From an uncultured Bacilli bacterium (GTDB taxonomy: Bacteria > Bacillota_I > Bacilli_A > RF39 > UBA660): a stretch of 42,024 nt of DNA. Position 1 is the stretch's first letter, and every line of letters starts with the position of its first letter. A program made the position numbers and the translations under genes. The stretch lies in NCBI GenBank assembly GCA_947628375.1, contig CANQZQ010000002.1, forward strand, positions 1-42,024, given 5' to 3'. Positions 11,018 to 42,024 of this stretch are shown one piece after another. The notes beneath the pieces were generated by a model. It saw nothing but the letters and a program-made list of their open reading frames with translations. It was not told where the DNA came from and searched no databases.

Positions 11018-11051
11018 TTTGAATCATTCCTTTAATTTATTTAATAATTTC

Positions 11052-11132
11052 ATACATCTAAAAAAATGTATTGACAATACATCTTATGAGGGGTAAAATT
11101 ATTTATATAATAATACACCTCTAAAGATGTAT
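11052..11132. promoter_or_regulatory. Operator-like ATACATCT repeats around the module A promoter
   Basis: ATACATCT occurs at 11052-11059 and 11077-11084, with its complement AGATGTAT at 11125-11132 and a variant ATACACCT at 11113-11120. ATACAT...ATGTAT (11052-11071) and ATACACCTCTAAAGATGTAT (11113-11132) are inverted repeats. Confidence 0.6.
11071..11099 (+). promoter_or_regulatory. Sigma-A-type promoter of the module A large gene
   Basis: TTGACA (11071-11076), a 17-nt spacer, then TAAAAT (11094-11099). On the other strand, TTGTCA (complement of 11072-11077), 17 nt, then TATGAA could drive the XRE gene. Confidence 0.6.
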
Positions 11133-11146
11133 AAAGGAGCATATCT

Positions 11147-12883
11147 ATGAAGAATAAAAAGAATACAATAATGTTAATAATGATAATAACAATATCTATG
11201 GTATTGTTAACCTGGAATAAGAGTTATTCATATAAAATGAATGATAATGAAGTAGAAGAAACAGAAGTAGAAAGAAAAGAATTTGGAATATATTTAGAAA
11301 AGAATCAAGGCTCAAGTAAACAAGATAATGATTATACTGAAACAAATACTTTTCCAACTCAAGGATATCTATTAAATACAACAAAAACAGAATGTTATGA
11401 ATACGGAAGTGATAATGTAATACAAAACGCAGTAGAACAAAGTTTAACAAATGGAGTAATAGATGGAACAATAATAGTAACAAGTCAAAAAAGTATGTAT
11501 TGTAAAATATATTTTGATAAAGATGATATATTACCAACAGTAACTGGATTTACAATAACAGGAAAAGATGTTAATGGAAGTGCTTTGAATAATGGTTATA
11601 CATATAATCCGGAAGTAACATATAACATAATATGGCAAGATAATGATGTAGCACAATATTGTATAAGTGAAGGAGCAAATTGTACAAATTGGCAACAAAT
11701 AGCAGGAACACAAGCAACAGGAGTAATGCCAGTATCACAAATCGATGGCGAGAAAACACTATATGTGTATTTAAAAGATAAAGCAAATAATACATCAGAA
11801 GTAAAAACAGAAAATATAATAGTAGATAGAACACCACCAGTAGTAAATACATTAACATTAACAGGAACAAAAGCGTCATGGTTTAATGTAAACCCTGGAT
11901 TCACTCACACAACAATGGTCAATTATAATGCAACTATTATAGAAGCAAATATAGAAGGATATTGTATACAAGAGGGAAGTAGTTGTAATACTTTTACACC
12001 GACATCATTATTAACTTTAAATGGGCAAGTACAAATATCTAACACAGAAACACTCCATACAGTGGTAATAAGTGTTCAAGATAAAGTCGGAAATATAGGA
12101 ATTATGACAGGAACTATTACATTAGATGCCACACCACCACAAGTAACAGTAACAGAAAAAAGTAAGACAGAGAACAGTATAACAGTTCATATAGAAGCAA
12201 CAGATACAAATGGAATACAAAGTAGGCATTGCCAATTACCAATAGAACCTTACACATGGATATTGGCAGATGCAAATGGAGATTGTACAGTAACAGGGTT
12301 ACAACCAGGGATAGCATATACGATACTTACTCATACCTATGATGGATCTGGCTTTGTCAATGAAGTAACGTCTTCATCGATATCCACAATGCAAGCTTGG
12401 ACATGTTCTAGTGGCAGTGTTCTAACACCTTCTAGTTTAGGTAGCGCGACCGGAGGATATGTTTGCGTTAAAGATGGGACAAGAGGGGACTCGTATGAAT
12501 GTGAGTGTAAATATTTAGACACGTGCAGTTCCGAGACGGTGTATCATAGTACCTACGATAAAGATTTAAGTTCGGCATTGGATGCTGAGAAGTCGTTGAC
12601 TGATAACGGGCTCGGTTCGCGAAGATGCTCTTGGTCCTCACAAAGTATGAAGGATTGTGGATCGTATTATAACTGCAGTGTCCACCGAAATGGCGATGCT
12701 GATATAATGTGCTATACAATTCAGCCTAATGGTTCGGGTTACACCTGCCGATCTGCGTACCATCCATATGAGGAAGTCTGCCGAACCTGTTATCACTATC
12801 AATGTGATGCTGACTGGCTGCAATTTTCTGGGAGTCTTGATAGTGCAAACTTAAAGTGCTATAAAGCCCCAACGAGGGGATAA
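11147..12883 (+). CDS. N-terminally anchored/secreted modular protein A: conserved head, 2 Ig-like repeats, FN3-like domain, Cys-rich C-terminal tip
   Basis: AAAGGAG RBS and hydrophobic N-terminus MKNKKNTIMLIMIITISMVLLTW. It is colinear with 25714-27909 to about aa 415. Repeats end in VDRTPP and LDATPP, each containing YCIxxGxxC. The FN3-like part contains SITVHIEATDTNGI...TVTGLQPGIAYTI. The last ~163 aa contain 14 Cys and have no counterpart in copy B. Confidence 0.8.
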   Translation: MKNKKNTIMLIMIITISMVLLTWNKSYSYKMNDNEVEETEVERKEFGIYLEKNQGSSKQDNDYTETNTFPTQGYLLNTTKTECYEYGSDNVIQNAVEQSLTNGVIDGTIIVTSQKSMYCKIYFDKDDILPTVTGFTITGKDVNGSALNNGYTYNPEVTYNIIWQDNDVAQYCISEGANCTNWQQIAGTQATGVMPVSQIDGEKTLYVYLKDKANNTSEVKTENIIVDRTPPVVNTLTLTGTKASWFNVNPGFTHTTMVNYNATIIEANIEGYCIQEGSSCNTFTPTSLLTLNGQVQISNTETLHTVVISVQDKVGNIGIMTGTITLDATPPQVTVTEKSKTENSITVHIEATDTNGIQSRHCQLPIEPYTWILADANGDCTVTGLQPGIAYTILTHTYDGSGFVNEVTSSSISTMQAWTCSSGSVLTPSSLGSATGGYVCVKDGTRGDSYECECKYLDTCSSETVYHSTYDKDLSSALDAEKSLTDNGLGSRRCSWSSQSMKDCGSYYNCSVHRNGDADIMCYTIQPNGSGYTCRSAYHPYEEVCRTCYHYQCDADWLQFSGSLDSANLKCYKAPTRG

Positions 12884-12890
12884 AGAGTTG

Positions 12891-12961
12891 ATCGAGAAGG
12901 AAAACTCGTTAAAACCTTCATAGACTTAATCCTTGGAAAGAGAGCAATCTCTTTCTTTTTT
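12891..12961 (+). repeat. Conserved 3' element of module A, including an intrinsic terminator (12936-12961)
   Basis: It differs from 27917-27986 at only 3 substitutions by my alignment. Hairpin GAAAGAGA-gcaa-TCTCTTTC plus a T-run. It begins 7 nt after the stop codon. Confidence 0.8.
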
Positions 12962-13032
12962 AATTTAACTAAAACATAAGTTTTTTTCTTGATTAATAAA
13001 TTAATCTATGATAAGCTATAGCTAGTTAGCAA

Positions 13033-13228
13033 GGAAGTTATTAAAAGAGATATTATATTATTACTAAAAGAGAGTTAATGGGTTGGTGTAAATTAATGGG
13101 TAATATAATAAATAGTATGGATAATGGAGCTAAATCAGTGAAGACTGTTATAACTAAAAGTGTATGATTAAGTTCATAAATAAAGGTGGTACCGCATTTA
13201 AAGTGTCCTTTTGTTTATGAATTTTTTT
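13033..13228 (+). promoter_or_regulatory. T-box riboswitch leader, probable Met (AUG) specifier, controlling HAD-dut-metG
   Basis: AAGGTGGTACCGC T-box core at 13183-13195. AGAGA/AGAGAG elements at 13044-13074 and a GGTGTAA distal-loop motif at 13085-13091. AUG at 13117-13119 followed by a purine in the putative specifier loop. Terminator TTCATAAAtAAAGG...CCTTTTgTTTATGAA plus T7 at 13173-13228 overlaps the T-box sequence. metG lies downstream. Confidence 0.75.
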
Positions 13229-22486: not shown

Positions 22487-24133
22487 GTGATGGAAAATAT
22501 TTTAATTACATATAATGGTGAAAAGAAAGAATTTCCCAAATATACTACTTACTATGATATTAGTAAAGCCTTTAATATGTCAAAAAATATTTTAGGAGTT
22601 AAAGTTAATAATGAAGTATTTTCTCTTACTGATGCAACTTCTATATCAGAGGAAATTAATTTTATTGATTTAAATGATATAATAGGTAATAAAATTTATA
22701 AAAGTGGTTTAGAATTTTTATTTGAAGTAGCCCTTAAAGAAGCTTATCCCAATTTAGATATAACATACCAACATAGTGTTCCTAAAGGCTTTTTAGGGGA
22801 AATAGTTGGTGATAAAATTATTACTCAAGATGATTTAGTGAAGATTAAAGGAATAATGGCTAGAATTATATCAGAAGATAAGCCTTTTAAAAAATATACT
22901 ATTAGTAAAAAAGACGCTATTAAATTTTATCAAAGTAAAAATCAAAAAGAAAAGTGTGAAAACATTCAAAATATCTCTGACGTTGCTGTCACTTTATATG
23001 AATTAAATGGTATACATAACTATTTTTATAATGATATGCCTTATAGTACAGGAAGCATAACTAAATACGATATTGTTTATTTAGGAAGAAACAGATTAGT
23101 TTTTTTAATTCCTAACTGGCGTTGTAATGGTGAACTTCCTGAATATGTTCATTATGATAATATTATTAATTCATTTTTAGTAGGTAAGAATTGGCTAGAA
23201 ACTTTAAATATGCAGTATGCTACTTCGATTAATAATACGATAAGTAATGGCAAGATAAAAGATTTCATTAAATCTTGTGAATTAATTTTTAATTTAAATA
23301 TGTCAGATGTTACTAAAGAAATAACTAATAATAGAAATATTAAATTTGTTTTAATTGCGGGTCCATCTTCTAGTGGTAAAACAACAACTGCCAAAAGATT
23401 AGCATCTTATTTAGAAGCCTTTGGTTTTGATCCTTTAAGATTATCAATTGATGATTTTTTCCTAGAAAGAGAAGATACCCCCAAAAATGAAAAGGGCGAA
23501 TATGACTTTGAATGTTTAACAGCAATTGATTTAAATTTATTCAATACTACCTTAAAGAAATTACTTGATGGTGAAGAAGTAAGTCTTCCGACATTTAACT
23601 TTGTTACTGGTAAAAAAGAATATAATGATAATTTAGTTAAAATGAGGGATAATAGTATTATCTTAATTGAAGGCTTACATGCTTTAAATGATGAATTATT
23701 ACCAAGTATCGATAAAAAATATAAATACAAAATTTATTTAAGCCCTTTTATTCCTCTTAATATAGATAGACATAATTATATATCCACAACTGATTTAAGA
23801 TTATTAAGAAGAATAGTTAGAGATAATAGAACAAGAAATTATGATGTTAATAACACTATCAAAGTTTGGCAAAATGTTAGAAATGGTGAAGAAAAATACA
23901 TTTTCCCATACATTCATCAAGCGGATAAAATAATTAATACCGCTCTTACTTATGAAATAGGAGTTATCAAAGTTTATGTTGAACCTTTACTTAGAAGTAT
24001 TAGAGTAAATAGTGATTATTATGAAGAAGCCAAAAGATTATTAAATTTTTTAAAAATTTTTTATACAATACCAAGCGAGTATGTACCAGAAGATTCAATA
24101 CTTAGAGAGTTTATAGGAGGATGCAATGATTAA
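22487..24133 (+). CDS. Uridine-kinase-family P-loop kinase with N-terminal TGS/ThrRS-like domains
   Basis: GPSSSGKTTTAKRL Walker A followed by a PRK/Udk-like region (IILIEGLHALND). The N-terminal ~230 aa resembles the TGS plus second additional domain arrangement. ATG at 22490 is an alternative start. Confidence 0.6.
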   Translation: MMENILITYNGEKKEFPKYTTYYDISKAFNMSKNILGVKVNNEVFSLTDATSISEEINFIDLNDIIGNKIYKSGLEFLFEVALKEAYPNLDITYQHSVPKGFLGEIVGDKIITQDDLVKIKGIMARIISEDKPFKKYTISKKDAIKFYQSKNQKEKCENIQNISDVAVTLYELNGIHNYFYNDMPYSTGSITKYDIVYLGRNRLVFLIPNWRCNGELPEYVHYDNIINSFLVGKNWLETLNMQYATSINNTISNGKIKDFIKSCELIFNLNMSDVTKEITNNRNIKFVLIAGPSSSGKTTTAKRLASYLEAFGFDPLRLSIDDFFLEREDTPKNEKGEYDFECLTAIDLNLFNTTLKKLLDGEEVSLPTFNFVTGKKEYNDNLVKMRDNSIILIEGLHALNDELLPSIDKKYKYKIYLSPFIPLNIDRHNYISTTDLRLLRRIVRDNRTRNYDVNNTIKVWQNVRNGEEKYIFPYIHQADKIINTALTYEIGVIKVYVEPLLRSIRVNSDYYEEAKRLLNFLKIFYTIPSEYVPEDSILREFIGGCND

Positions 24134-25139
24134 AGTAGCGATTAATGGTTTTGGAAGAATAGGTAGAATTGCCTTTAGAGAAATGATTACAACAAGTGAT
24201 TTTGATGTTGTAGCAATTAATGATTTATCAAATGCTGAAGAATTAGCTCATTTACTTAAATATGATACAGTTCATCGTTCATTTCATGAGCAAGAGATTT
24301 CATATGATGGTAATGATATTGTAATTGCAGGTAAAAAAAGAATTAGAGTATTTAGTGAAAAAGATCCAGTTAATTTACCTTGGCGAGATCTAAATGTTGA
24401 TTTAGTTTTAGAGTGTACAGGGGTATTTACTAAATATGAAGATGCAATGAAACATATCACCGCAGGAGCTAAAAAAGTTTTAATATCAGCTCCAGGCAAA
24501 GGTGATATGAAGACAATTGTCTATGGTGTCAATGATAATATTTTAGATGGAACTGAACAAATAGTATCATCAGCTAGTTGTACGACTAATTGTTTAGCTC
24601 CAGTTTTAAAAGTTATAAATGATAATTATGGTATTAACAAAGGATTTATGAGTACTGTTCATGCTTTTACTAATGATCAAGAAACTTTAGATATAGCTCA
24701 TAAAAAAGGTATATATGCAAGACGTGGAAGAGCCGCTAGTCAAAATATTATTCCCGCTTCAACTGGGGCTGCCTCAGCAATTGGTTTAGTTATACCAGAA
24801 TTAAATGGTAAATTAGATGGACTTGCTTATAGAGTACCAGTTTGTGATGGCTCATTAATTGATGTTACTTTAGAGTTAAAATCATCACCATCAATTGATG
24901 ATATAAATAATTTATTTATGAATAATCAAAATGAAACATTAAAATTTACTAAAGATCCAATCGTTTCTAGTGATGTTATTGGTAAAAGATGTGGTTCTCT
25001 AGTAGACGGATTACTTACTAATATGGTTGAAGTAAATAATACAAGATTATATAAAATAGTATCTTGGTATGATAATGAACTTGGTTATACTTGTCAAATG
25101 CTAAGATGTGCTAAAGCAATGTTTAAAAATACTCTTTAA
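24126..25139 (+). CDS. gap: Type I glyceraldehyde-3-phosphate dehydrogenase
   Basis: MIKVAINGFGRIGR, active site SASCTTNCLAP, WYDNELGY. AGGAGGA RBS. Overlaps the upstream gene by 8 nt. Confidence 0.95.
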   Translation: MIKVAINGFGRIGRIAFREMITTSDFDVVAINDLSNAEELAHLLKYDTVHRSFHEQEISYDGNDIVIAGKKRIRVFSEKDPVNLPWRDLNVDLVLECTGVFTKYEDAMKHITAGAKKVLISAPGKGDMKTIVYGVNDNILDGTEQIVSSASCTTNCLAPVLKVINDNYGINKGFMSTVHAFTNDQETLDIAHKKGIYARRGRAASQNIIPASTGAASAIGLVIPELNGKLDGLAYRVPVCDGSLIDVTLELKSSPSIDDINNLFMNNQNETLKFTKDPIVSSDVIGKRCGSLVDGLLTNMVEVNNTRLYKIVSWYDNELGYTCQMLRCAKAMFKNTL

Positions 25140-25152: not shown

Positions 25153-25600
25153 AACGTTTATAAGGAGTTCTTTCATCAGTTAAATATAATAAATAATCAA
25201 TTGGTACATTGTAATATTTAGCTAAAATAATTAGCTTTGTAATAGGAATATCGCAATAACTTGTTTCATATTGTGAATAACCATTTTGACTCATATTTAA
25301 TATTTTAGCAATATCTATTTGTAATAAATCTCTATCTTCTCTAACATCTTTTAATCTATTCATGTTATTAGCAGTTTTAATAATATGTGATGGATTATAA
25401 GGTGTTTTTATATCTGTTAAATTTAAAATATAATCGATATTGACATCAAAAATTATCGCTAATTTTCTAAGTTTAGTTGTCGAAATATTTGATAGTTCTG
25501 TCTCATATTGCGAGTATCCATTTTGACTCATATTTAATTCTTTAGCAATATCTTTTTGATATAAATTTTTTTCTTTTCTAAGTTCCTTTAGTCTATTCAT
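25151..25600 (-). CDS. XRE-family regulator with two tandem HTH domains (149 aa), module B
   Basis: Two ~70-79 aa repeats: MNRLKELRKEKNLYQKDIAKELNMSQNGYSQYET...DYILNLTD and MNRLKDVREDRDLLQIDIAKILNMSQNGYSQYET...DYLLYLTDERTPY. Divergent from 25714. Confidence 0.85.
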   Translation of the reverse strand: MNRLKELRKEKNLYQKDIAKELNMSQNGYSQYETELSNISTTKLRKLAIIFDVNIDYILNLTDIKTPYNPSHIIKTANNMNRLKDVREDRDLLQIDIAKILNMSQNGYSQYETSYCDIPITKLIILAKYYNVPIDYLLYLTDERTPYKR

Positions 25601-25622
25601 AATCTCACATCTAAAATTTAAC

Positions 25623-25698
25623 GTATCGTAAATAAAGATATTGACTTATATCGCTATTAACGATATACTTAATTTAATAATATCGTAAATAACGATAT
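25623..25698. promoter_or_regulatory. Three ATATCG/CGATAT-type operator-like repeats around the module B promoter
   Basis: TATCGTAAATAAaGATA (25624-25640), TATATCG-ctattaa-CGATATA (25647-25667, inside the spacer and -10), and ATATCGT-aaata-ACGATAT (25680-25698). Confidence 0.65.
25641..25669 (+). promoter_or_regulatory. Sigma-A-type promoter of the module B large gene
   Basis: TTGACT (25641-25646), a 17-nt spacer, then TATACT (25664-25669). Confidence 0.6.
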
Positions 25699-25713
25699 AA
25701 GGAGAATCTATCT

Positions 25714-27909
25714 ATGAAGAATAAAAAGAATACAATAATGTTAATAATGGTAATATCAATATCTATGGTATTGTTAACATGGAATAAGAGTTATTCATAT
25801 AAAATGGATAATAATGAGATAGAAGAAAAAGAAGTAGAAAGAAAAGAATTTGGGATATATTATCAAACTTCTGGAAATTCATATGAAGAAAAAGATACTT
25901 TCCCAACTCAAGGATATCTGTTAAATACAATAAAAACAGAATGTCATGAATATGGAAGTGATAATGTAATACAAAATGCAGTAACACAAAGTTTAATAAA
26001 TGGAGTAATAGATGGAAGTATAATAGTACAAAGTACAAAAAGTATGTATTGTAAAATATATTTTGATAAAGATGAAACACCAACAGTAAGTTCATTTAAT
26101 ATAACAGGAAAAGATAAAAATGGTGGTGTATTACAAAATGGATATACATATAATACAGGAGTATATGCAATAAGTTGGAATGATAGAGATGTAGCACAAT
26201 ATTGCTTAAGTGATAATAGTAGTACATGTACAAATTGGGTAGAAATAGGAGATAAATCAGTTAAAACAATAACAATAGAGAATAGTACATATACAAATAC
26301 AGAAGGCCCAAAAACAATATATGCATATATAAAAGATAAAGCAAATAATATATCAAATACAATAACAAATTCGACTAAACAAATAGCAGTAGATCAAACG
26401 CCACCTGTAATAAATGCATTAACATTAACGGGAACACAAGCAGCTGGAATGACATTACAAAGTGGATATACTCATACACAAACAGTAAATTATAATGCAA
26501 CTATAACAGAAACAAATATGGAAGGATATTGTATAGTAGATGGAAGTAGTTGTAGTAATTACAATACATCACCAATAACATCATTAAGTAGTACAATAGC
26601 AATAGGAACAACACAAGGAAGCCATCCAATAACATTAAGTGTAAAAGATAAAGCAGGAAATATAGGCAGTAAAACTCAATCGATAAGATTAGACACACAA
26701 AATCCAACAATAACATTGAGTAATGGAACAGCAACAGAAACAAGTATAACAGTAACAGTAAATGCAAGTGATTCTAATGGAATAGCTAGTGTAACATGTA
26801 CAGCAGTAGGAAATAATGAAGCCAAAACTGGAACATATAATAGTACTGCTAAGACATGTACATTTAGTGGTTTAAAAGATGGAACACAATATACAATAAT
26901 TGGAGTAGCAACGGACGAATCAGGAAGAAAAGGTACAAGTACACCAATAGAAGTTACTACAATTAAGCTTTTAACAGATGGTCAAAAAAAGGCTCAAGAA
27001 GTGTTAGGTGTGGTACCAAAAGGGATAAGTGAAAAGTTACTTGGAGACATGTACAGATTTGTAGGTACGAAAGATACTGTAGATAACTGGATATGTTTTG
27101 GTTATAGTAATGTAGATACGGATTGTAAATCACCATCGAGTGATTTTATGTATCGAATAATAGGGATTACTGAAGATGGACAATTAAAACTCATAAAAAA
27201 TTTAGCATATGAAAAGTATGAATGGAATTGTGAAGATTGTGGGAGAAGTCTTCATGGAGCAGCTCTATATGAACTATGGAGTAGCTCAAGTGTCCGATAT
27301 AGGGTGCAATCCGATTTTCCAACAGATCATTTAAGTAATTTATCACCAGGCAGTTCAAAACAATGGAGTGAATTAGTAGAAACAAAAGACTGGTTATATG
27401 GAGATTTTATAGCATATAATAACAATCCAATACAGAATCTTACTGCTAATCAAGTGTATGAAGCCGAGTCTGGAAAAGTAGATGTGTATATTGAAAGAAG
27501 TAGCGAATATGATCTTGTTGGTAAATGGGAGAAAACAATTACGGGTAAATTTAGCTTAATGTATGTTCATGATTTTCTATACTCATATAGCTCTGATAAT
27601 AGTCTTGATTCTTCTAATACTAGATGCACTTACGCGGGTGACTGTAAAGATAGTTGGTTATTTATTGGCAATTCTTTGCCAGAAACAGATAATAACCAAC
27701 AAAGAGATGAATGGACCATGACTTCCAGAGGTTGGGATTATGCTGGGTGGTATCAAGCAAATAGAATCGGCAGCGGGGCCATCCTTGATAGCGCCGCCAC
27801 CAATACGATTTGGTATCGGCCCGTCTTTTATATCTCCCCAACAAAGGTTAAGATAAATAAGGGCAGTGGAGTGACTTCTTCACCTTTTATAGTTGTTCCA
27901 GTAATCTAG
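25714..27909 (+). CDS. N-terminally anchored/secreted modular protein B: same head and Ig/FN3 stalk as 11147-12883, unrelated ~315-aa aromatic-rich C-terminal tip
   Basis: It differs from protein A at 6 of the first 49 residues. Repeats end in VDQTPP and LDTQNP, each with YC(L/I)...C. The FN3-like part contains SITVTVNASDSNGI...FSGLKDGTQYTI. From about aa 418 the tip carries YRFVGTKDTVDNWICFG, FMYRIIGITEDGQLKLI, EWTMTSRG and WYRPVFYI motifs. Confidence 0.8.
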   Translation: MKNKKNTIMLIMVISISMVLLTWNKSYSYKMDNNEIEEKEVERKEFGIYYQTSGNSYEEKDTFPTQGYLLNTIKTECHEYGSDNVIQNAVTQSLINGVIDGSIIVQSTKSMYCKIYFDKDETPTVSSFNITGKDKNGGVLQNGYTYNTGVYAISWNDRDVAQYCLSDNSSTCTNWVEIGDKSVKTITIENSTYTNTEGPKTIYAYIKDKANNISNTITNSTKQIAVDQTPPVINALTLTGTQAAGMTLQSGYTHTQTVNYNATITETNMEGYCIVDGSSCSNYNTSPITSLSSTIAIGTTQGSHPITLSVKDKAGNIGSKTQSIRLDTQNPTITLSNGTATETSITVTVNASDSNGIASVTCTAVGNNEAKTGTYNSTAKTCTFSGLKDGTQYTIIGVATDESGRKGTSTPIEVTTIKLLTDGQKKAQEVLGVVPKGISEKLLGDMYRFVGTKDTVDNWICFGYSNVDTDCKSPSSDFMYRIIGITEDGQLKLIKNLAYEKYEWNCEDCGRSLHGAALYELWSSSSVRYRVQSDFPTDHLSNLSPGSSKQWSELVETKDWLYGDFIAYNNNPIQNLTANQVYEAESGKVDVYIERSSEYDLVGKWEKTITGKFSLMYVHDFLYSYSSDNSLDSSNTRCTYAGDCKDSWLFIGNSLPETDNNQQRDEWTMTSRGWDYAGWYQANRIGSGAILDSAATNTIWYRPVFYISPTKVKINKGSGVTSSPFIVVPVI

Positions 27910-27916
27910 TGTTCAA

Positions 27917-27986
27917 ATCGAGAAGGAAAACTCGTAAAAACCTTCATAGACTTAATCCTTGGGAAGAGAGCAATCTCTTCCTTTTT
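27917..27986 (+). repeat. Conserved 3' element of module B, including an intrinsic terminator (27962-27986)
   Basis: Near-identical to 12891-12961. Hairpin GGAAGAGA-gcaa-TCTCTTCC plus T5. It begins 7 nt after the stop codon. Confidence 0.8.
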
Positions 27987-28065: not shown

Positions 28066-29211
28066 ATGATGAAATATTTAAGTAAAGATAATATAAATAA
28101 TAAAAAAGTATTATTAAGATGTGATTTTAATGTCCCTGTAGTAGATAATAAAATTACCGATGATAGCAGAATAACTAAAAGTTTTAAAACAATTAATTAT
28201 TTATTAGATAATAACAATAAAGTTATTTTATTAAGTCATTTTGGAAGAGTAAAAAGTGAAGAAGATAAAAAGAAAAATAGTTTATACATTGTTTATGAAT
28301 ATTTAAAGAAGTATTATGATTTAGAATTTATTAGTAATCCCTTAGATTTAAGCATTATAAATAATAGTGATAAAAATTTATTTTTAGTAGAAAATACAAG
28401 ATTTACTGATATTCCCGAAAAAAAAGAAAGTGCTAATGATTTAAAACTAGCTAAATATTGGAGTAATTTTGCTGATGTTTTTGTTATTGATGCTTTTGGT
28501 TCCATGCATCGTACTCATTCATCTACTGCTGGAATATCTAACTATTTACCAACTTATTTAGGATTCTTAGTCGAAGAAGAATTAAATAACTTAAGTCCTC
28601 TTTTAAACCATATTGATTTAGTTATTATGGGTGGTGCTAAAGTAGATGATAAAATTAAAATAATTGAGGGTATTCTTCCTAAATGTAATTACTTAATTAT
28701 AACTGGAGGTATTTTAAATACATTTTTACAAGTAATGGGCTATAATGTGGGAAATAGTTTAGTTGCTACAGATGAAGAAGTTTTAAATAAAGTTAAAGAT
28801 ATATTAGATAGTAATAAAGATAAAATATTATATTCAGATACATTTATTGTTAAAAGAGATAATGATAATATTAAACTAAGTTTAAAAGATATTAAAGATA
28901 GAGATATTATTTATGATAATATTATTGATTTAGATAATATTATTAATAATTCTAAAATTATCTTTTTAAATGGTACTTGTGGTATGTGTGAAAATGATGC
29001 TTATAAAGAAGGAACTACTATGTTATTAAATAAACTAGCTAACTGTGGTAATGATGTTTATATTGGTGGTGGTGATACTGCTTCTTTTGTTAAACTATTT
29101 AATTTAGAAGAAAAGTTTAAATATGTTTCAAGTGGGGGAGGAGCAACTTTAGAATATATAAGTGATGGTGATTTAAAAGCTTTAAAATATATTAGAGAAA
29201 ATTTGCAATAA
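28066..29211 (+). CDS. pgk: Phosphoglycerate kinase (short, divergent)
   Basis: LLRCDFNVPV..KITDDSRI, SHFGR, AFGSMHR, GGAKVDDKI, IGGGDTASFV, SSGGGATLEY; 381 aa. Confidence 0.85.
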   Translation: MMKYLSKDNINNKKVLLRCDFNVPVVDNKITDDSRITKSFKTINYLLDNNNKVILLSHFGRVKSEEDKKKNSLYIVYEYLKKYYDLEFISNPLDLSIINNSDKNLFLVENTRFTDIPEKKESANDLKLAKYWSNFADVFVIDAFGSMHRTHSSTAGISNYLPTYLGFLVEEELNNLSPLLNHIDLVIMGGAKVDDKIKIIEGILPKCNYLIITGGILNTFLQVMGYNVGNSLVATDEEVLNKVKDILDSNKDKILYSDTFIVKRDNDNIKLSLKDIKDRDIIYDNIIDLDNIINNSKIIFLNGTCGMCENDAYKEGTTMLLNKLANCGNDVYIGGGDTASFVKLFNLEEKFKYVSSGGGATLEYISDGDLKALKYIRENLQ

Positions 29212-32715: not shown

Positions 32716-33525
32716 ATGTTAAATTTTGATTATTTAAACGATGACTTAGCTTTTAAACAAGTATTTATGCATAATGAAATACTAGAAGATTTAATAACAT
32801 CATTTTTAAATTATATAGGCAAAAACAATAATAATAGATTAATAACCGAATTAATACCCAATTCTTATATAAATCCTGATCATAAAAAATTTAGAAGCTA
32901 TTATGGTGATTTAACTGCAACTAAAGATGATGTTATCATATCAATTGAAATGTATAAAAATAAGTTTAGTCAAAAAGACTATAATAAAAGTTTAGGCTAT
33001 TTATGTAGGCTTTATAGTCGTCAAGCAAAAAGTATAAAAACAACTGATTACAAGAAAGTTATAAGTCTCAATTTCATTAAAGGCAATTTTAAAAGAATCA
33101 ATAATAATATTGTTAATGGTTATAGTCTTAAGAATGTCATTAATAATAGTGAATTAAATGATAATATTTTAATGTATTTAGTAAGGTATGATTTAATAGA
33201 TAATATACCTTATGAAGATGAAGAAGAAAGATTTATAACATTTTTAAGAATAATAGGGAGTAAAAGTGTGAAAGATATGAAAAAATATGCCAAAGGAGAT
33301 AAGATAATGGAAGAAATAATAAAGATGTTAAAAGAATGGAATATTGAATCAGATAGAATTAATTATCAAAGAAGAATTGATGAAGCTAAAGAAGAAGGAA
33401 TAGAAGCAAATAAAATTGCCACAGCTAAAAAATTAATTAATTTAAATGCTTCAAAAGAATACATATTAGAAATAACTGAAATTAGTGATAAAGAATATGA
33501 AAAATTAATAAATAATAAATGGTAA
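32716..33525 (+). CDS. Rpn/YhgA-like PD-(D/E)xK nuclease family protein (putative transposase-like, PDDEXK_2)
   Basis: The N-terminal DDLAFKQVFMHNEILEDLITSFLNYIG and the core GDLTATKDDVIISIEMY match the pattern of this family. AAAGGAGG RBS. Confidence 0.6.
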   Translation: MLNFDYLNDDLAFKQVFMHNEILEDLITSFLNYIGKNNNNRLITELIPNSYINPDHKKFRSYYGDLTATKDDVIISIEMYKNKFSQKDYNKSLGYLCRLYSRQAKSIKTTDYKKVISLNFIKGNFKRINNNIVNGYSLKNVINNSELNDNILMYLVRYDLIDNIPYEDEEERFITFLRIIGSKSVKDMKKYAKGDKIMEEIIKMLKEWNIESDRINYQRRIDEAKEEGIEANKIATAKKLINLNASKEYILEITEISDKEYEKLINNKW

Positions 33526-38412: not shown

Positions 38413-41088
38413 ATGAATGATCAATTTCAAAAATTACGTCTTCAATATCCAGATTTTATATATGATAAATATGAATATGATTTAGTAGATGATTTATTAA
38501 CAATTAAGTATTATTTTAGCATTCCTAATTTAACTACTTTTAATCCTCTTATAAGTTTAAAAGTACCTCATAATATTTCCCTAAATGATAGTTATTTAAA
38601 AAATTTAATTTTTCATTTAGGATTAATTGAAATTATTAGTTATATAAAATGTACTTGTAGTCCTAATATTATAATTAAAGCTGGTTTTTTAGATACTGAA
38701 CAAATAAAATGGTTTCAAAAACTTTATTATAATGGATTAGGGGAATTTTTATATCGTAATGAAATAACAATTAAAGAAGAAGATTTATTTAATTTTAAAA
38801 TAGAAGGGCAAAAAATAGAGTTAGAACCTATAAATTATATAACAAGTGGTAATCTAATTCCCGTTGGAGGAGGTAAAGACTCCGCTGTTGTCCTAGAAAT
38901 GTTAAAAAATGAAAAAGATAATACAGCCTTTATATTAAACCCTAAAAAAGCTAATTTAGCCTGTATTAAAGAAGCTAATGTGGAATGTATAATAGCCAAA
39001 AGAATCATTGATCCTAACTTAATAAAATTAAATAATGAAGGCTTTTTAAATGGTCATACTCCTTTTAGTGCTCTTTTATCTTTTGTTTCATTTTTAGTAT
39101 CTTACATATATCATAAAAAATATATTATATTAGCTAATGAAGCAAGTGCCAATGAAGAAACCGTCTTAAATTCGCATATTAATCATCAATATTCTAAATC
39201 TTATGAATATGAAAATGATTTTAATAATTATATGACCAAATACTTTCACCTAGATATTCATTATTTTAGTCTTTTAAGGCCTCTAAATGAATACCAAATT
39301 GCTTATTTATTTTCCCATTATGAGAAATATCATCCCATTTTCAAAAGTTGTAATGTTGGTAGTAAAGATGATTCATGGCCTTGGTGTTGTAATTGTCCTA
39401 AATGCCTATTTGTGTATATTATTTTAAGCCCTTTTATGGATAAAGATAAATTAATAGATATATTTAAAGAAGATTTATATGAAAGAAAAGACTTACTACC
39501 TATCTTTTTAGAATTATCAGGTTATGCTTTAACTAAACCTTTTGAATGTGTTGGTACTTATCATGAAGTTAGATGTGCTATAAGTAAAGTAATTAAAAAA
39601 TTAGATAAATTACCATATTTACTAGAGTATTTTAAAGATCATTATCCTTTAGAAGATGACTGTGATTTAATTAATAATTATAATCATGAAAATAATTTAC
39701 CAGCCTATTTTGCGGACATTATAAAAAAGGAGATGCAAAATATGATAAATGATTTAGTGGATTTTTTAAAAGATAAAAAAATAGCTATTTTAGGAATGGG
39801 TCGAGAAGGCATATCAACATATAAATTCATAAGAAAAAATTTACCCAATCAATTTTTAACTTTAATAGATCAAAATAATATTAAAGAAAATCCCTTATAT
39901 AAAGATGATCATAATCTTTCTTTTATAATTCAAGATAATTATTTAAATAATTTAAATCAATTTGATTTAATTATTAAAACTCCGGGCATCTCATTTAAAG
40001 ACATTGATATTAGTAAAATAAAAGATAAAATTACTTCCGAGTTAGAGTTAATATTAAAATTTAATAGAGAAAATGTTATAGGTATTACTGGTACTAAAGG
40101 TAAAAGTACTACTTCATCATTATTATATAAAGTTTTAAAAGAAAATAAAAAAGATGTTTTTCTTTTAGGAAATATTGGTAAACCTATCTTTGATGAAATA
40201 GAAAATATTAAAGATGATTCCCTTTTAGTTATTGAAATGTCTAGTCATCAATTAGAATTTGTTAATCACTCTCCGCATATAGCCATTATCTTAAATTTAT
40301 TTCAAGATCATTTAGATCATGCTGGGAGTATTGAAAATTATCATCAAAGTAAATTAAATATTTTTAAATATCAAACTAAAGATGATTATGCTATCTATGC
40401 TTCTGATAATGATTACTTAAAAGAATATATGAATAATGATATTTATAAAGCTAAAAAATATAAATTTCAAGAAGAAGAGACTGCTAATATAAATACTTTA
40501 TATATTAAAGATCACTATATTTATTTAGGTAATGAAAAATTATATGATATCAATGAAGAACGTCATCTTTTAGGTATCCATAATTTAAAAAATATTATGG
40601 CTGTTTTAATAGTTGCCAAAATACTTAATTTAGATATGAATTTAACAAAGAACGCTATTAATAATTTTAGTCCCCTTCCATATCGGATGGAATATGTTGG
40701 TAAGTATGATGATATTCATTTTTATTGTGATACCATTGCCACAATTCCTGAAGCCACTATTTCAGCTTTAGAGAGTTTAAAAGATATAAAAACTCTTATT
40801 ATTGGGGGAGAAGATCGGCATATTGATTATACAAAATTAATTGAATATTTAAAAAATAGTCAAATAGATAATTTAATATGTATGCCAACTACTGGTTTTA
40901 TGATTGGCAAATTAATTATCAATAAAAACGTTTATTTTGTTAATACTTTAAAAGAAGCAGTAGATATAAGTAAAGAGGTAACTCCGAAAAATACTGGGTG
41001 TTTACTAAGCCCTGCGGCAGCTAGTTATGAATTTTATAAAAACTTTGAAGAAAAAGGCGACGAATTTAAAAAATTAATAAAAAATTAG
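38413..41088 (+). CDS. murD: Fusion protein: N-terminal PP-loop-like / Cys-cluster domain (~440 aa) plus a complete MurD-type UDP-N-acetylmuramoyl-L-alanine--glutamate ligase
   Basis: C-terminal half: KKIAILGMGREGIST, GITGTKGKSTTSSLL, EMSSHQLE, and NLFQDHLDH fit a Mur ligase with MurD layout. N-terminal half: PVGGGKDSAV (38866-38883), HTPFSAL, SCNVGSKDDSWPWCCNCPKCLF. Internal AAGGAG at 39727-39732 lies 9 nt before the in-frame ATG at 39742. Confidence 0.75.
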   Translation: MNDQFQKLRLQYPDFIYDKYEYDLVDDLLTIKYYFSIPNLTTFNPLISLKVPHNISLNDSYLKNLIFHLGLIEIISYIKCTCSPNIIIKAGFLDTEQIKWFQKLYYNGLGEFLYRNEITIKEEDLFNFKIEGQKIELEPINYITSGNLIPVGGGKDSAVVLEMLKNEKDNTAFILNPKKANLACIKEANVECIIAKRIIDPNLIKLNNEGFLNGHTPFSALLSFVSFLVSYIYHKKYIILANEASANEETVLNSHINHQYSKSYEYENDFNNYMTKYFHLDIHYFSLLRPLNEYQIAYLFSHYEKYHPIFKSCNVGSKDDSWPWCCNCPKCLFVYIILSPFMDKDKLIDIFKEDLYERKDLLPIFLELSGYALTKPFECVGTYHEVRCAISKVIKKLDKLPYLLEYFKDHYPLEDDCDLINNYNHENNLPAYFADIIKKEMQNMINDLVDFLKDKKIAILGMGREGISTYKFIRKNLPNQFLTLIDQNNIKENPLYKDDHNLSFIIQDNYLNNLNQFDLIIKTPGISFKDIDISKIKDKITSELELILKFNRENVIGITGTKGKSTTSSLLYKVLKENKKDVFLLGNIGKPIFDEIENIKDDSLLVIEMSSHQLEFVNHSPHIAIILNLFQDHLDHAGSIENYHQSKLNIFKYQTKDDYAIYASDNDYLKEYMNNDIYKAKKYKFQEEETANINTLYIKDHYIYLGNEKLYDINEERHLLGIHNLKNIMAVLIVAKILNLDMNLTKNAINNFSPLPYRMEYVGKYDDIHFYCDTIATIPEATISALESLKDIKTLIIGGEDRHIDYTKLIEYLKNSQIDNLICMPTTGFMIGKLIINKNVYFVNTLKEAVDISKEVTPKNTGCLLSPAAASYEFYKNFEEKGDEFKKLIKN

Positions 41089-41153: not shown

Positions 41154-42024
41154 ATGAAGAAAAAAAATTTAATTTTAATTTTAGGATTAATAACCTTTTT
41201 AATTAATACTAAAGTTAGTTTTGCTTATACATGTCGGTATAATAGTGCAAATACTACTCAAAAAAAGGGATGTGGCGAATTTACTATTAATATTGAAAAA
41301 ATTAATACAAGTGTCGATGTCTTATCAACATATAAAAATAATATTAAGTTTGCTAATGGTGGTATGTTAATTAATGAATTTACGGTTTCAGATGGTTGGA
41401 AAAGTTTAGCTAGAGGAGAATTAAATGGTGAATGTCCAGAATTATATTCAAAATTAAATGCTTATGGTAATGGCAAATATTGTGATATTCATTTTGGCTT
41501 TGGTGATTGGGATTATACCATGTATGATGATTATATTTTTGAATATGGAACCAATGTTGAAGATCCACTAGAACCAACTCCTTTAGTACCAGATGAATTT
41601 GCTAATGAATTATATTGGACTTTTGGAATAGAAGGGCATGAATATGCTGATGCTGGTTCATGTATTATTGGTGAACCAAGATATGTATATGTAGAAGCTA
41701 TAAAAAGAAAAATTATTGCTTGCGTAAGTACTTCATCAAATGCTACTCCTTCTGTAAGTGACGATAATCCTTCAATTACATGCGGTTATGCCCAATACCA
41801 TGATACATATAGGGCCACTACAGTAGATGGCAAAATAACTAAGAGTGATAATAGTCCTAAATTTTATGCTGGTGTTTGTTATGATGCCGTCCATGTTTCT
41901 CCAGGTAATTCTAATCCTACTAAACCAGAGACTCAAACTCCTGATCCATATGAAAATAAGCTTAATTATAATAGTTTATGTGCAAATGGCGATTTTAGGA
42001 AAGTAGCCCGTATTTTAGGAATAG
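41154..42024 (+). CDS. Secreted Cys-containing protein, 3'-truncated by the window edge (not in the ORF track)
   Basis: TGGAG RBS and signal peptide MKKKNLILILGLITFLINTKVSFA. I translated 290 codons to the window end without a stop. There are 9 Cys, and a PTKPETQTPDP linker lies near the end. Confidence 0.7.
   Translation, partial: MKKKNLILILGLITFLINTKVSFAYTCRYNSANTTQKKGCGEFTINIEKINTSVDVLSTYKNNIKFANGGMLINEFTVSDGWKSLARGELNGECPELYSKLNAYGNGKYCDIHFGFGDWDYTMYDDYIFEYGTNVEDPLEPTPLVPDEFANELYWTFGIEGHEYADAGSCIIGEPRYVYVEAIKRKIIACVSTSSNATPSVSDDNPSITCGYAQYHDTYRATTVDGKITKSDNSPKFYAGVCYDAVHVSPGNSNPTKPETQTPDPYENKLNYNSLCANGDFRKVARILGI

Follow-up and report, generated by a model that had tools for sequence, protein, structure and literature searches.

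Predicted surface proteins of uncultured rabbit-gut Bacilli share a codon-usage boundary between the stalk and its exchangeable heads

The window analyzed here is a 42,024-nucleotide stretch of DNA from an uncultured Bacilli bacterium (assembly GCA_947628375.1, contig CANQZQ010000002.1, positions 1 to 42,024), and it holds two paralogous genes, gene A and copy B, together with the associated features listed in Table 1. The predicted product of gene A begins with a hydrophobic anchor (residues 9-23) and a conserved N-domain; two Ig-like domains and one FN3-like domain follow, and the protein ends in a Cys-rich head, here called tip A. It should be noted that the anchor and stalk domains are called from sequence features and sub-threshold Pfam matches (Big_13/Big_3): the best Pfam score is 22.1 bits for Big_13 against a gathering cut-off of 27, fn3 reaches 16.9 bits in copy B, and for some homologs a PF19077 or PF00041 assignment is precomputed. 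The divergent regulator gene is located 130 nt upstream of gene A. Two inverted repeats (ATGTAT..ATACAT and ACATCT..AGATGT) overlap the promoter-like site and could be operators. Downstream of the gene A terminator is a T-box-controlled HAD/dUTPase/MetRS operon. YabG and Spo0A are also encoded in the window, which supports the identification of the host as a spore-former.

Table 1. Positions of the two paralogs and their associated features in the window.
Feature	Position	Strand	Basis or remark
XRE-family HTH regulator gene, divergent, 76 aa	10787..11017	-	Pfam HTH_3 E 3.5e-14
Promoter-like TTGACA-17 nt-TAAAAT for gene A	11071..11099	+	read from sequence
Gene A, 578-aa predicted surface protein	11147..12883	+	ORF; homologous proteins n=27, loci n=56
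Stalk of gene A, residues 1-415	11147..12391	+	extreme A-ending codon usage, GC3 ~0.14
Tip A, Cys-rich head, 163 aa, 14 Cys	12392..12880	+	GC3 0.40
Tip A modules: N-terminal AWTCxxG..GGYVC and C-terminal YxC..W..SGS..KCYKAPTRG hairpins, variable centre between			
Conserved 3' element: hairpin CGAG-AAGGAAAA-CTCG, then TTAAAACCTTCATAGACTTAATCC	12893..12932	+	96% identity with the element downstream of copy B
Intrinsic-terminator-like hairpin GAAAGAGAG-CAAT-CTCTCTTTC and T run	12935..12961	+	fold prediction
Tandem pair of XRE-family HTH genes, upstream of copy B	25154..25594	-	tblastn with gene-A regulator: 50% and 35% identity
Copy B, 731-aa paralog, same stalk as gene A	25714..27909	+	AF2 pLDDT 87
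Second 3' element and terminator, after copy B	27917..27986	+	sequence comparison

The composition of gene A changes markedly along its length. The G+C counts for single 60-nt lines given in a preliminary description of this DNA (24, 30, 31 and 13) were reproduced exactly, and the reported tip of 163 aa with 14 Cys was confirmed (codons 416-578, with ECEC and RTCYHYQC present). Cysteine accounts for 8.6% of tip A versus 0.90% of the other window proteins; exported Firmicute proteins generally avoid Cys, and a dense array of Cys in one of them is unusual. The same description placed an abrupt change at about nt 12335. This holds for GC3, for which a two-segment model places the change-point at nt 12443 (support interval 12224-12485, within which nt 12335 falls; 0.14 to 0.43) with a likelihood matched by 0 of 500 permutations, but not for total GC, which climbs more gradually from about nt 11600. 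In blocks of 50 codons, GC3 is 0.04-0.18 in the stalk and 0.32-0.46 in tip A, compared with 0.07-0.16 in other window genes. At 4-fold sites, A reaches 0.73 in the gene A stalk and 0.75 across the stalks of the family described below, against a background of T 0.54 and A 0.30. The shift in gene A is more than an amino-acid effect. As had also been claimed, tip A cannot be aligned to copy B (BLASTP covers residues 1-419 only, with 54% identity), and the view of the tip as a module separate from the stalk was borne out.

Alignments of 17-21 heads yielded two motifs for the Cys-rich class, Y/W-x-C-x-x-G...G-Y-x-C at the N-terminal end and Y-x-C-x-x-x-W-x-x-[YF]-x-G-S...C-Y-K at the C-terminal end, both of which occur in tip A. 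The number of Cys is even in all 17 of 17 distinct Cys-rich heads, suggesting disulfides, and His is scarce. The AF2 model of tip A (6-row alignment, mean pLDDT 58) reaches a pLDDT of 78-93 over residues 1-42 and of 89-94 over residues 127-163, with values below 50 between them, and a Foldseek search with this model found no structural neighbour in the PDB. Among 1.84 billion representative proteins, phmmer with tip A retrieved a single relative, P0002, and this protein is built on the same stalk. Neither tip A nor the head profile matched anything in Pfam, PHROGs, phage records or Rfam, and PDB sequences gave only chance-level RING-box matches (E 0.012). In the databases searched, no relative of the Cys-rich head was detectable outside the family.

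The GC3 change-point of copy B lies at nt 26989 (0.085 to 0.265). Its head has no Pfam match at the sequence level, and the copy B model matched the Thomasclavelia ramosa IgAse (9qa6; E 4.4e-6) and phage DUF6273 proteins, which are of the receptor-binding type (E 5.3e-7), in Foldseek searches. [quoted passage not shown] The copy B head shares the fold of this domain and of DUF6273, at about twice the canonical CTLD size, but it forms the C-terminus of a stalk, whereas the T. ramosa domain forms the N-terminus of a peptidase. As far as can be judged, tip A lacks this fold.

Gene A is 35-58% identical to the 56 loci of a family known solely from MAGs of uncultured Bacilli of the rabbit gut, one MAG having as many as about 25 copies. 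The DNA sampled comprised the window and the related MAG loci (777 kb of fragmented MAG DNA). In an alignment of 26 proteins, the N-domain motif FxIY..P..GYLLN..K..C...YC.IYFDKD and the KDKANN-containing Ig-like domains form invariant columns. As read from sequence, the family consists of predicted membrane-anchored surface proteins, and tip A forms the C-terminal head of one paralog. Every member follows one fixed plan, with one or more divergent XRE repressor genes, a predicted promoter, a signal-anchor, the N-domain, an Ig-like/FN3 stalk, a head, the 3' element and a terminator. Genes homologous to the gene A HTH regulator, one or two per locus, precede at least 20 family copies at a distance of about 120 nt, and the complete copies (40-odd) are all full length with upstream regulator genes. 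The heads are of two unrelated and interchangeable types, either enlarged C-type-lectin-like as in copy B or Cys-rich as in tip A.

The GC3 jump is common to every head, whichever its class, in the window as well as in four related MAG species, and the pattern is kept in each of these species at a divergence of 8-22% in housekeeping DNA. For 17 Cys-type and 33 lectin-type genes, GC3 is flat at about 0.08 on the stalks and rises at the junction to 0.35-0.40 in the heads, which have an overall GC of 40-47% versus 25% for the genome. At 4-fold sites, base usage in the heads is close to even (A.35, T.33, G.18, C.12), and GC3 is alike in conserved (0.34) and variable (0.31) head codons. Among the genes sampled (777 kb), high head GC, which is most pronounced at synonymous sites, is confined to this family; for 477 non-family ORFs of the window and related MAG loci, the best 50-codon GC3 has a 99th percentile of 0.40, and the ORFs at or above 0.42 are only broken family head fragments or one shadow ORF.

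Several candidate causes of the high head GC were rejected. Amino-acid composition or local-GC context would predict a GC3 of 0.147 by regression at the GC12 of the heads, compared with the observed 0.307. A general trait of Cys-containing secreted proteins does not fit one such protein at the end of the window (from 41154), which has a GC3 of about 0.12. G-quadruplex-type features are likewise rejected (0 G4 motifs in 38.9 kb), as is an assembly chimera, given continuous ORFs and AT-rich conserved flanks at 50 independent loci. Parsimony polarisation found no GC-to-AT excess of the kind expected if heads were decaying toward AT: W->S changes outnumber S->W changes by 103 to 35 in lectin heads and by 19 to 7 in Cys heads, with a method that is biased toward W->S at these divergences and that gives the same ratio in stalks. 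JC-corrected dS is unreliable for comparing stalk with head because the skewed composition of the stalk saturates pS near 0.41.

Heads swap between stalks, since stalks that are 87% identical at the nucleotide level bear different head classes. Loci L028 and L032 share 750 nt of stalk without a difference and have heads that cannot be aligned. The exchange junction falls at about nt 1000-1250 of the gene and the GC rise at about nt 1650; because the junction is upstream of the rise, the swapped module takes in AT-rich FN3 sequence. Segmental mosaicism also occurs among family copies, and the heads have a dN/dS of 0.24-0.64 and a pS between paralogs of 0.35-0.70. The clearest recent conversion (the 750 identical nt) is found in the stalks, which nevertheless have the lowest GC3, an observation that speaks against simple GC-biased gene conversion.

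We consider it probable, on balance, that these genes form a family of surface proteins with swappable heads, and that the composition of the heads is actively kept instead of being a relic of transfer. The head would bind the ligand of an adhesin or receptor-like protein, with the stalk keeping it away from the cell, and 5-10 disulfides would hold a Cys-rich head together. Two conserved beta-hairpin end modules may clamp a hypervariable centre, in which the specificity would lie. The family could then serve the cell as a repertoire of binding specificities, diversified through head-module exchange and segmental gene conversion, with each copy under its own repressor. A continuing force, as opposed to a leftover of transfer, would maintain head composition, and the likeliest forces would be a bias linked to recombination or else selection acting at synonymous sites. 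The latter might arise if rare codons slow the translation of hard-to-fold heads, or if divergence shields the heads from the conversion that homogenises the stalks. A dedicated head-directed process that is free of reverse transcriptase (RT) and keeps the synonymous composition of both folds near-uniform, by biased conversion or mutation or by insulating synonymous divergence, seems improbable to us; in its bias version, conversion or mutation would act between the end of the stalk and the conserved 3' element.

The preliminary description took the compositional jump as a sign that the tip has a different origin from its stalk, which would be the case if tip A, or both head types, had been transferred from a GC-richer donor, fused to a native stalk, and retained the donor codons. 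Such a transfer is consistent with the sharp GC3 change at a domain junction, with a head codon usage unlike that of both stalk and genome, and with the movement of heads among stalks. However, copy B and about 50 paralogs with two unrelated folds jump likewise across the window and the four MAG species, no relative of tip A beyond the family was found in the representatives, PDB, Pfam, PHROGs or phage records searched, GC-to-AT changes are not in excess, and the exchange junction is upstream of the GC3 rise. Two observations had been named as telling against a foreign tip. One was a tip always found with this stalk, and the Cys-rich head indeed occurs only there. The other was the presence of similar GC-rich stretches in many native genes; these exist within the family but not beyond it, all of them being in paralogs of gene A. 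Hence we regard foreign origin as unlikely, although the pS between paralogous heads leaves room for an ancient transfer followed by expansion and incomplete amelioration. Somewhat less doubtful, yet still not what we would expect, is selection on translation or mRNA, whereby the best-decoded A-ending codons would make stalks fast to translate, and a near-random head codon mix, rich in rare G/C-ending codons, would slow ribosomes to let disulfide-rich or irregular lectin-like heads fold or translocate correctly, or would stabilise the 3' mRNA. The A content of 0.75 at the 4-fold sites of stalks next to near-uniform heads points in this direction, as do the GAPDH-like and NusG-like ORFs of related loci, presumably highly expressed, with A at 0.45 versus a median of 0.30. 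The effect is also regional and independent of residue conservation, and the compositional boundary coincides with the domain boundary and not with the recombination boundary. The ordinary GC3 of the Cys-containing secreted protein from 41154 speaks against such selection, and we know of no precedent for folding-rate selection shifting a whole domain this much.

Targeted hypermutation of the heads, either by adenine mutagenesis resembling that of diversity-generating retroelements (DGRs) or by some other mechanism that uses the conserved 3' element for priming, is suggested by the C-type-lectin-like fold, a classic DGR target. Like the DGR variable proteins Mtd and TvpA, the lectin-type heads have a C-terminal lectin fold, multiple paralogs and a hypervariable stretch preceding a conserved end (EWTM...VRPVFYL). 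At 4-fold sites, moreover, A is less frequent in heads than in the stalk while T, G and C are more frequent, GC3 tends upward toward the 3' end, and the hairpin element follows every stop codon. We nonetheless find hypermutation very unlikely, as no RT-like ORF (YxDD plus GxxxSQ) was found in the 777 kb of fragmented MAG DNA around the 56 loci, nor a template-like repeat of either head in the window. The codon-position signature is also wrong, for third positions shift most, and conserved and variable codons shift alike, whereas DGRs target positions 1-2 of AAY. Affected regions of 500-900 nt, two unrelated head folds and the dN/dS of the heads likewise do not fit. A polymorphic toxin, in which a conserved stalk delivers toxin domains that vary at the C-terminus, the arrangement of Rhs, CdiA and LXG proteins, is the explanation to which we give least credence. 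In rhs genes, as in this family, a conserved N-terminal body carries displaced C-terminal tips of differing base composition (PMC2935791). Here, however, there is no toxin-family match and no immunity-size ORF downstream, where the stop codon is followed by the 3' element, the terminator and unrelated housekeeping genes; the other head type is lectin-like, the contrast in composition runs the opposite way and is uniform over all heads, and the exchange and compositional junctions do not coincide.

The vls cassettes of Borrelia have a GC content of 49% versus 28.6% for the chromosome, and active maintenance of this difference has been argued (PMC11499132). The family resembles vls in having a variable part that is far GC-richer than an AT-rich genome and in the segmental mosaicism between copies. 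It differs in that vls has a single expression site and promoterless silent cassettes, whereas family copies are full length with their own promoter and repressor, and in that the strong GC skew and G-runs of vls are not seen in the heads, which lack G-runs and G4 motifs and have a skew of 0.27 versus 0.21 in stalks. The proteins themselves are unrelated. The MgPa repeats of Mycoplasma genitalium are comparable to vls cassettes.

An intragenic codon-usage boundary, usually taken as a sign of transfer, is here a conserved trait of about 50 paralogs, and we would therefore like to emphasize that local GC alone should not be used to call foreign DNA. This raises the question of what keeps the synonymous sites of the heads so distant from the genome equilibrium. 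The family also represents a large unannotated surface repertoire in uncultured gut Bacilli, with a Cys-rich head that has no relative in Pfam, NCBIfam or the PDB and that is apparently a disulfide-rich exported domain. If a head-directed process free of RT were to operate, it would be a new way for an AT-rich bacterium to keep a binding repertoire.

The 3' element is present in 48 copies in the related loci, every one at the 3' end of a family gene, and it is also found in phages and in one RNA-virus-like contig. Its stem covaries among phage copies, with a fully paired stem in 47 of 112 pattern matches versus 2% expected and 11 distinct stem pairs. The coremin/xrRNA-C motif of plant RNA viruses consists of a 4-bp hairpin with the loop consensus YGAD or YGNNAD, a (G)UUAAAC-type spacer and a second hairpin (PMC10520033). 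The 3' element shares with it the 4-bp hairpin with a purine-rich loop, the (G)UUAAAC-type spacer and a second hairpin conserved in structure only, but the loop AAGGAAAA, found in all copies, is outside this consensus, the bacterial copies have a longer spacer, and the host exonuclease would be RNase J, not Xrn1. The element thus resembles the coremin motif, with a putative function; should it prove to be an RNA that resists exonucleases or stalls ribosomes, this plant-virus motif would be extended to bacteria and phages. The stem of the adjoining terminator varies in sequence among copies, with pairing kept.

The compositional shift in gene A and its Cys-rich end are real and highly non-random. 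Total GC is 0.21 at the 5' end, increases to 0.44-0.47 across 12300-12900 and drops to 0.25 past the stop codon (window mean, 0.251); synonymous positions show the strongest shift. In blocks of 50 codons, GC at third codon positions (GC3) ranges over 0.04-0.18 along the stalk and reaches 0.32, 0.46 and 0.44 in the final three blocks; other genes of the window have 0.07-0.16. At two-fold sites, C/(C+T) is 0.32 in tip A versus a background of 0.08, and G/(A+G) is 0.41 versus 0.08. The GC3 break maps to nt 12443 by change-point analysis (support 12224-12485); none of 500 permutations was as extreme. The four 60-nt G+C counts of the preliminary description were exact on recount, as were its 14 Cys in the last 163 codons (12392-12880). 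Its statement that tip A cannot be aligned to the paralog, copy B (25714-27909), agrees with a BLASTP alignment ending at residue ~419, and its term "spore-former" is reasonable, YabG and Spo0A being encoded in the window.

Searching with the full-length gene A product retrieved 27 proteins that match it over the N-terminal 40-78% of the length and differ at their C-termini. A separate locus scan, using one genome per species, yielded 56 family loci, nearly all from MAGs of the rabbit gut ('Lapin') that carry the label uncultured Bacilli, with ~25 copies in one MAG and ~6-12 in each of three others; housekeeping DNA is 78-92% identical among these MAGs and between them and the window. From N- to C-terminus, family proteins comprise a hydrophobic anchor, a conserved N-domain, one to three Ig-like domains (sub-threshold Big_13/Big_3), an FN3-like domain and a head of one of two classes. 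Lectin-type heads, as in copy B, begin with ...MYRFVG...MYRIIGI... and end with ...EWTM...VRPVFYL...GTSxDPFII. Cys-rich heads, as in tip A, begin with (A/I)(Y/W)xCxxG...GGYxC and end with YYCxxGWxxYSGS...CYKAATKG, with a centre variable in both length and sequence. The AF2 model of the lectin-type head (pLDDT 87) matches the N-terminal domain of the Thomasclavelia ramosa IgA peptidase (9qa6, E 4.4e-6), described by its authors as a double-size C-type-lectin-like domain (PMC12237041), as well as DUF6273 and receptor-binding proteins of gut phages (best E 5e-7). Three distant members (L053:373-2445, L052:2088-3389 and L033:7402-9045) begin with a SipW/TasA-type signal peptide motif (..GATYAYFS..). 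SYSYKM, just past the gene A anchor, is possibly a degenerate version of this motif, a hint that the N-domain assembles in a fibre- or pilus-like manner.

Tip A is a new head domain in this variable and previously unannotated surface-protein family. Alone, it has no match in Pfam, NCBIfam, PHROGs or phage records; among PDB sequences it gave only chance-level RING-box matches and the head profile gave none, and Foldseek found no structural neighbour for its model. In an alignment of 17 distinct Cys-rich heads, the end modules have invariant Cys and Gly, and a Y-x-C...Y-x-S...C...C unit is repeated. The number of Cys is even in all 17 (range 10-20) and His are few, a pattern that favours complete disulfide pairing over metal sites; most stalks also have 6 or 8 Cys. 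Confidence in the AF2 model of tip A is restricted to residues 1-42 and 127-163, which are beta-strands, and does not extend to the centre. We infer that tip A is a disulfide-knotted binding head whose variable surface is framed by two conserved hairpin modules. A polymorphic toxin reading fails, there being no immunity gene.

Stalks and heads differ in codon usage, and this difference is conserved across the family. All complete family genes have a GC3 of 0.12-0.53 over their final 150 codons (mostly 0.27-0.48), compared with 0.04-0.15 in their stalks. With 17 Cys-type and 33 lectin-type genes aligned where the FN3 domain ends, GC3 stays flat at ~0.08 over 400 codons and then rises to 0.35-0.40 in both classes; a separate change point was located in copy B at 26989. 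In the sample of 477 non-family ORFs, GC3 above 0.42 occurs only in broken head fragments. Amino-acid composition was rejected as the cause, since the background GC12-GC3 regression predicts 0.147 and 0.307 is observed; conserved and variable head codons are alike (0.34 and 0.31). At 4-fold sites stalks favour A (0.75 overall; 0.73-0.80 at 11147-12391 and 25714-26967), opposite to the T preference of the genome (background T 0.54, A 0.30) and not approached by any non-family gene in the 777 kb examined; head usage is close to even (A.35, T.33, G.18, C.12). A partial ORF at 41154-42024, whose secreted product has scattered Cys (YTCRYN.., GECPELY..), combines raised total GC (0.34) with ordinary GC3 (~0.12); used as a control, it shows that Cys-containing exoproteins in general do not share the head effect.

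Sequence comparisons show that heads are exchanged between stalks. Different head classes occur on stalks 87% identical over 1.2 kb, and long shared runs among heads within a genome exceed permutation expectation. L028:13-2240 and L032:155-2448, unrelated loci from two close MAG species (housekeeping DNA 92.5% identical), share 750 nt of stalk at 100% identity, which falls off from nt ~1000, and their heads are unalignable; the explanation is very recent conversion or transfer, unless the sequences were mis-binned. The preliminary description was partly right, about modularity and the unusual Cys-rich domain, and wrong about the meaning of the compositional jump, which it took as a mark of a different origin for tip A: the GC3 rise occurs throughout the family and in both head classes. 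Nor was the tip found on other scaffolds; phmmer against 1.84 billion representative proteins recovered a sole relative (P0002, E 2.6e-23), with the same stalk. Heads are exchanged at a junction upstream of the GC rise (nt ~1650 of the gene), and rough parsimony gives 103 AT-to-GC and 35 GC-to-AT head substitutions, with no GC-to-AT excess, although stalks are equally biased and this evidence is weak. Together with the presence of the pattern in all species, these observations imply that the jump is not a tip-A-specific transfer scar. The head composition is instead probably a maintained state. That simple GC-biased conversion raised head GC is an awkward proposal, as stalks convert most yet are most AT-rich; DGR-type mutagenesis of the heads is unlikely, given that the RT motif is absent from the 777 kb, no template repeat was found in the window and the codon-position signature is wrong.

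Past the stop codon of nearly every family copy lies CGAG-AAGGAAAA-CTCG-T(A/T)AAAACCT(T)CATAGACTTAA.., and then a terminator hairpin, the stem of which differs in sequence between copies but stays paired. The element was followed through the window and loci L001-L054, L057-L059 and L060-L170. All 48 element copies in the family loci are located at the 3' end of a family gene. One MAG has TGAC/GTCA as the first stem, and a distant member has CAAG/CTTG. The exact 24-mer also occurs in a phage-like metagenome contig, where an extended -10 promoter directly precedes it. Another occurrence is in an RNA-virus-like contig (L058 = L097) that encodes protease, RdRp and capsid, within the 3' UTR. A degenerate scan of viral contigs gave 112 matches, of which 47 have a perfectly paired 4-bp stem (chance 2%) using 11 different stem pairs. 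The core comprises a covarying 4-bp stem, loop AAGGAAAA and tail UWAAAACCU. In many phage contigs, copies lie just downstream of promoters (transcript 5' ends) or terminators, and next comes either a second hairpin or an SD and a start codon. No Rfam family corresponds to the element. Its layout resembles plant-virus coremin / xrRNA-C, with a 4-bp hairpin, purine loop, GUUAAAC spacer and structurally conserved second hairpin (PMC10520033), but the loop consensus differs, and possible kinship is a lead, not a result.

Coordinates of features in the window and in related MAG loci
Feature	Position	Strand	Details
Gene A, 578-aa ORF	11147-12883	+	includes tip A (12392-12880)
3' element and terminator	12893-12961		after gene A
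3' element and terminator	27919-27986		after copy B (731 aa)
T-box leader	13023-13213		upstream of HAD-hydrolase / dUTPase / MetRS genes; Rfam RF00230, 59.8 bits, E 1.4e-12, below gathering score 93
Rpn-family (PD-(D/E)XK) recombination-promoting nuclease / putative transposase gene	32716-33525		window
Rpn-family gene, as above	L042:11774-12685		related MAG locus
Rpn-family gene, as above	L044:12481-13359		related MAG locus
ORF fusing MurL-like UDP-MurNAc-L-Ala-L-Glu epimerase domain (residues 64-395) to MurD (456-890)	38413-41088		891 aa

One or two divergent XRE HTH genes lie ~120 nt upstream of at least 20 family copies. Inverted repeats differ between the promoter regions of gene A (11050-11140, ACATCT/AGATGT) and gene B (25620-25700, TATCG/CGATA), which suggests that each copy has its own repressor-operator pair. 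Copy B, two HTH genes and the 3' element (25154-27986) lie between gap (24126-25139) and pgk (28066-29211), interrupting a normally contiguous glycolytic gene cluster, and this placement suggests that family units insert as cassettes. In MAG 007, Rpn-family genes are directly downstream of family copies. The MurL-like/MurD fusion could be a single-protein form of the MurD2/MurL route to D-Glu.
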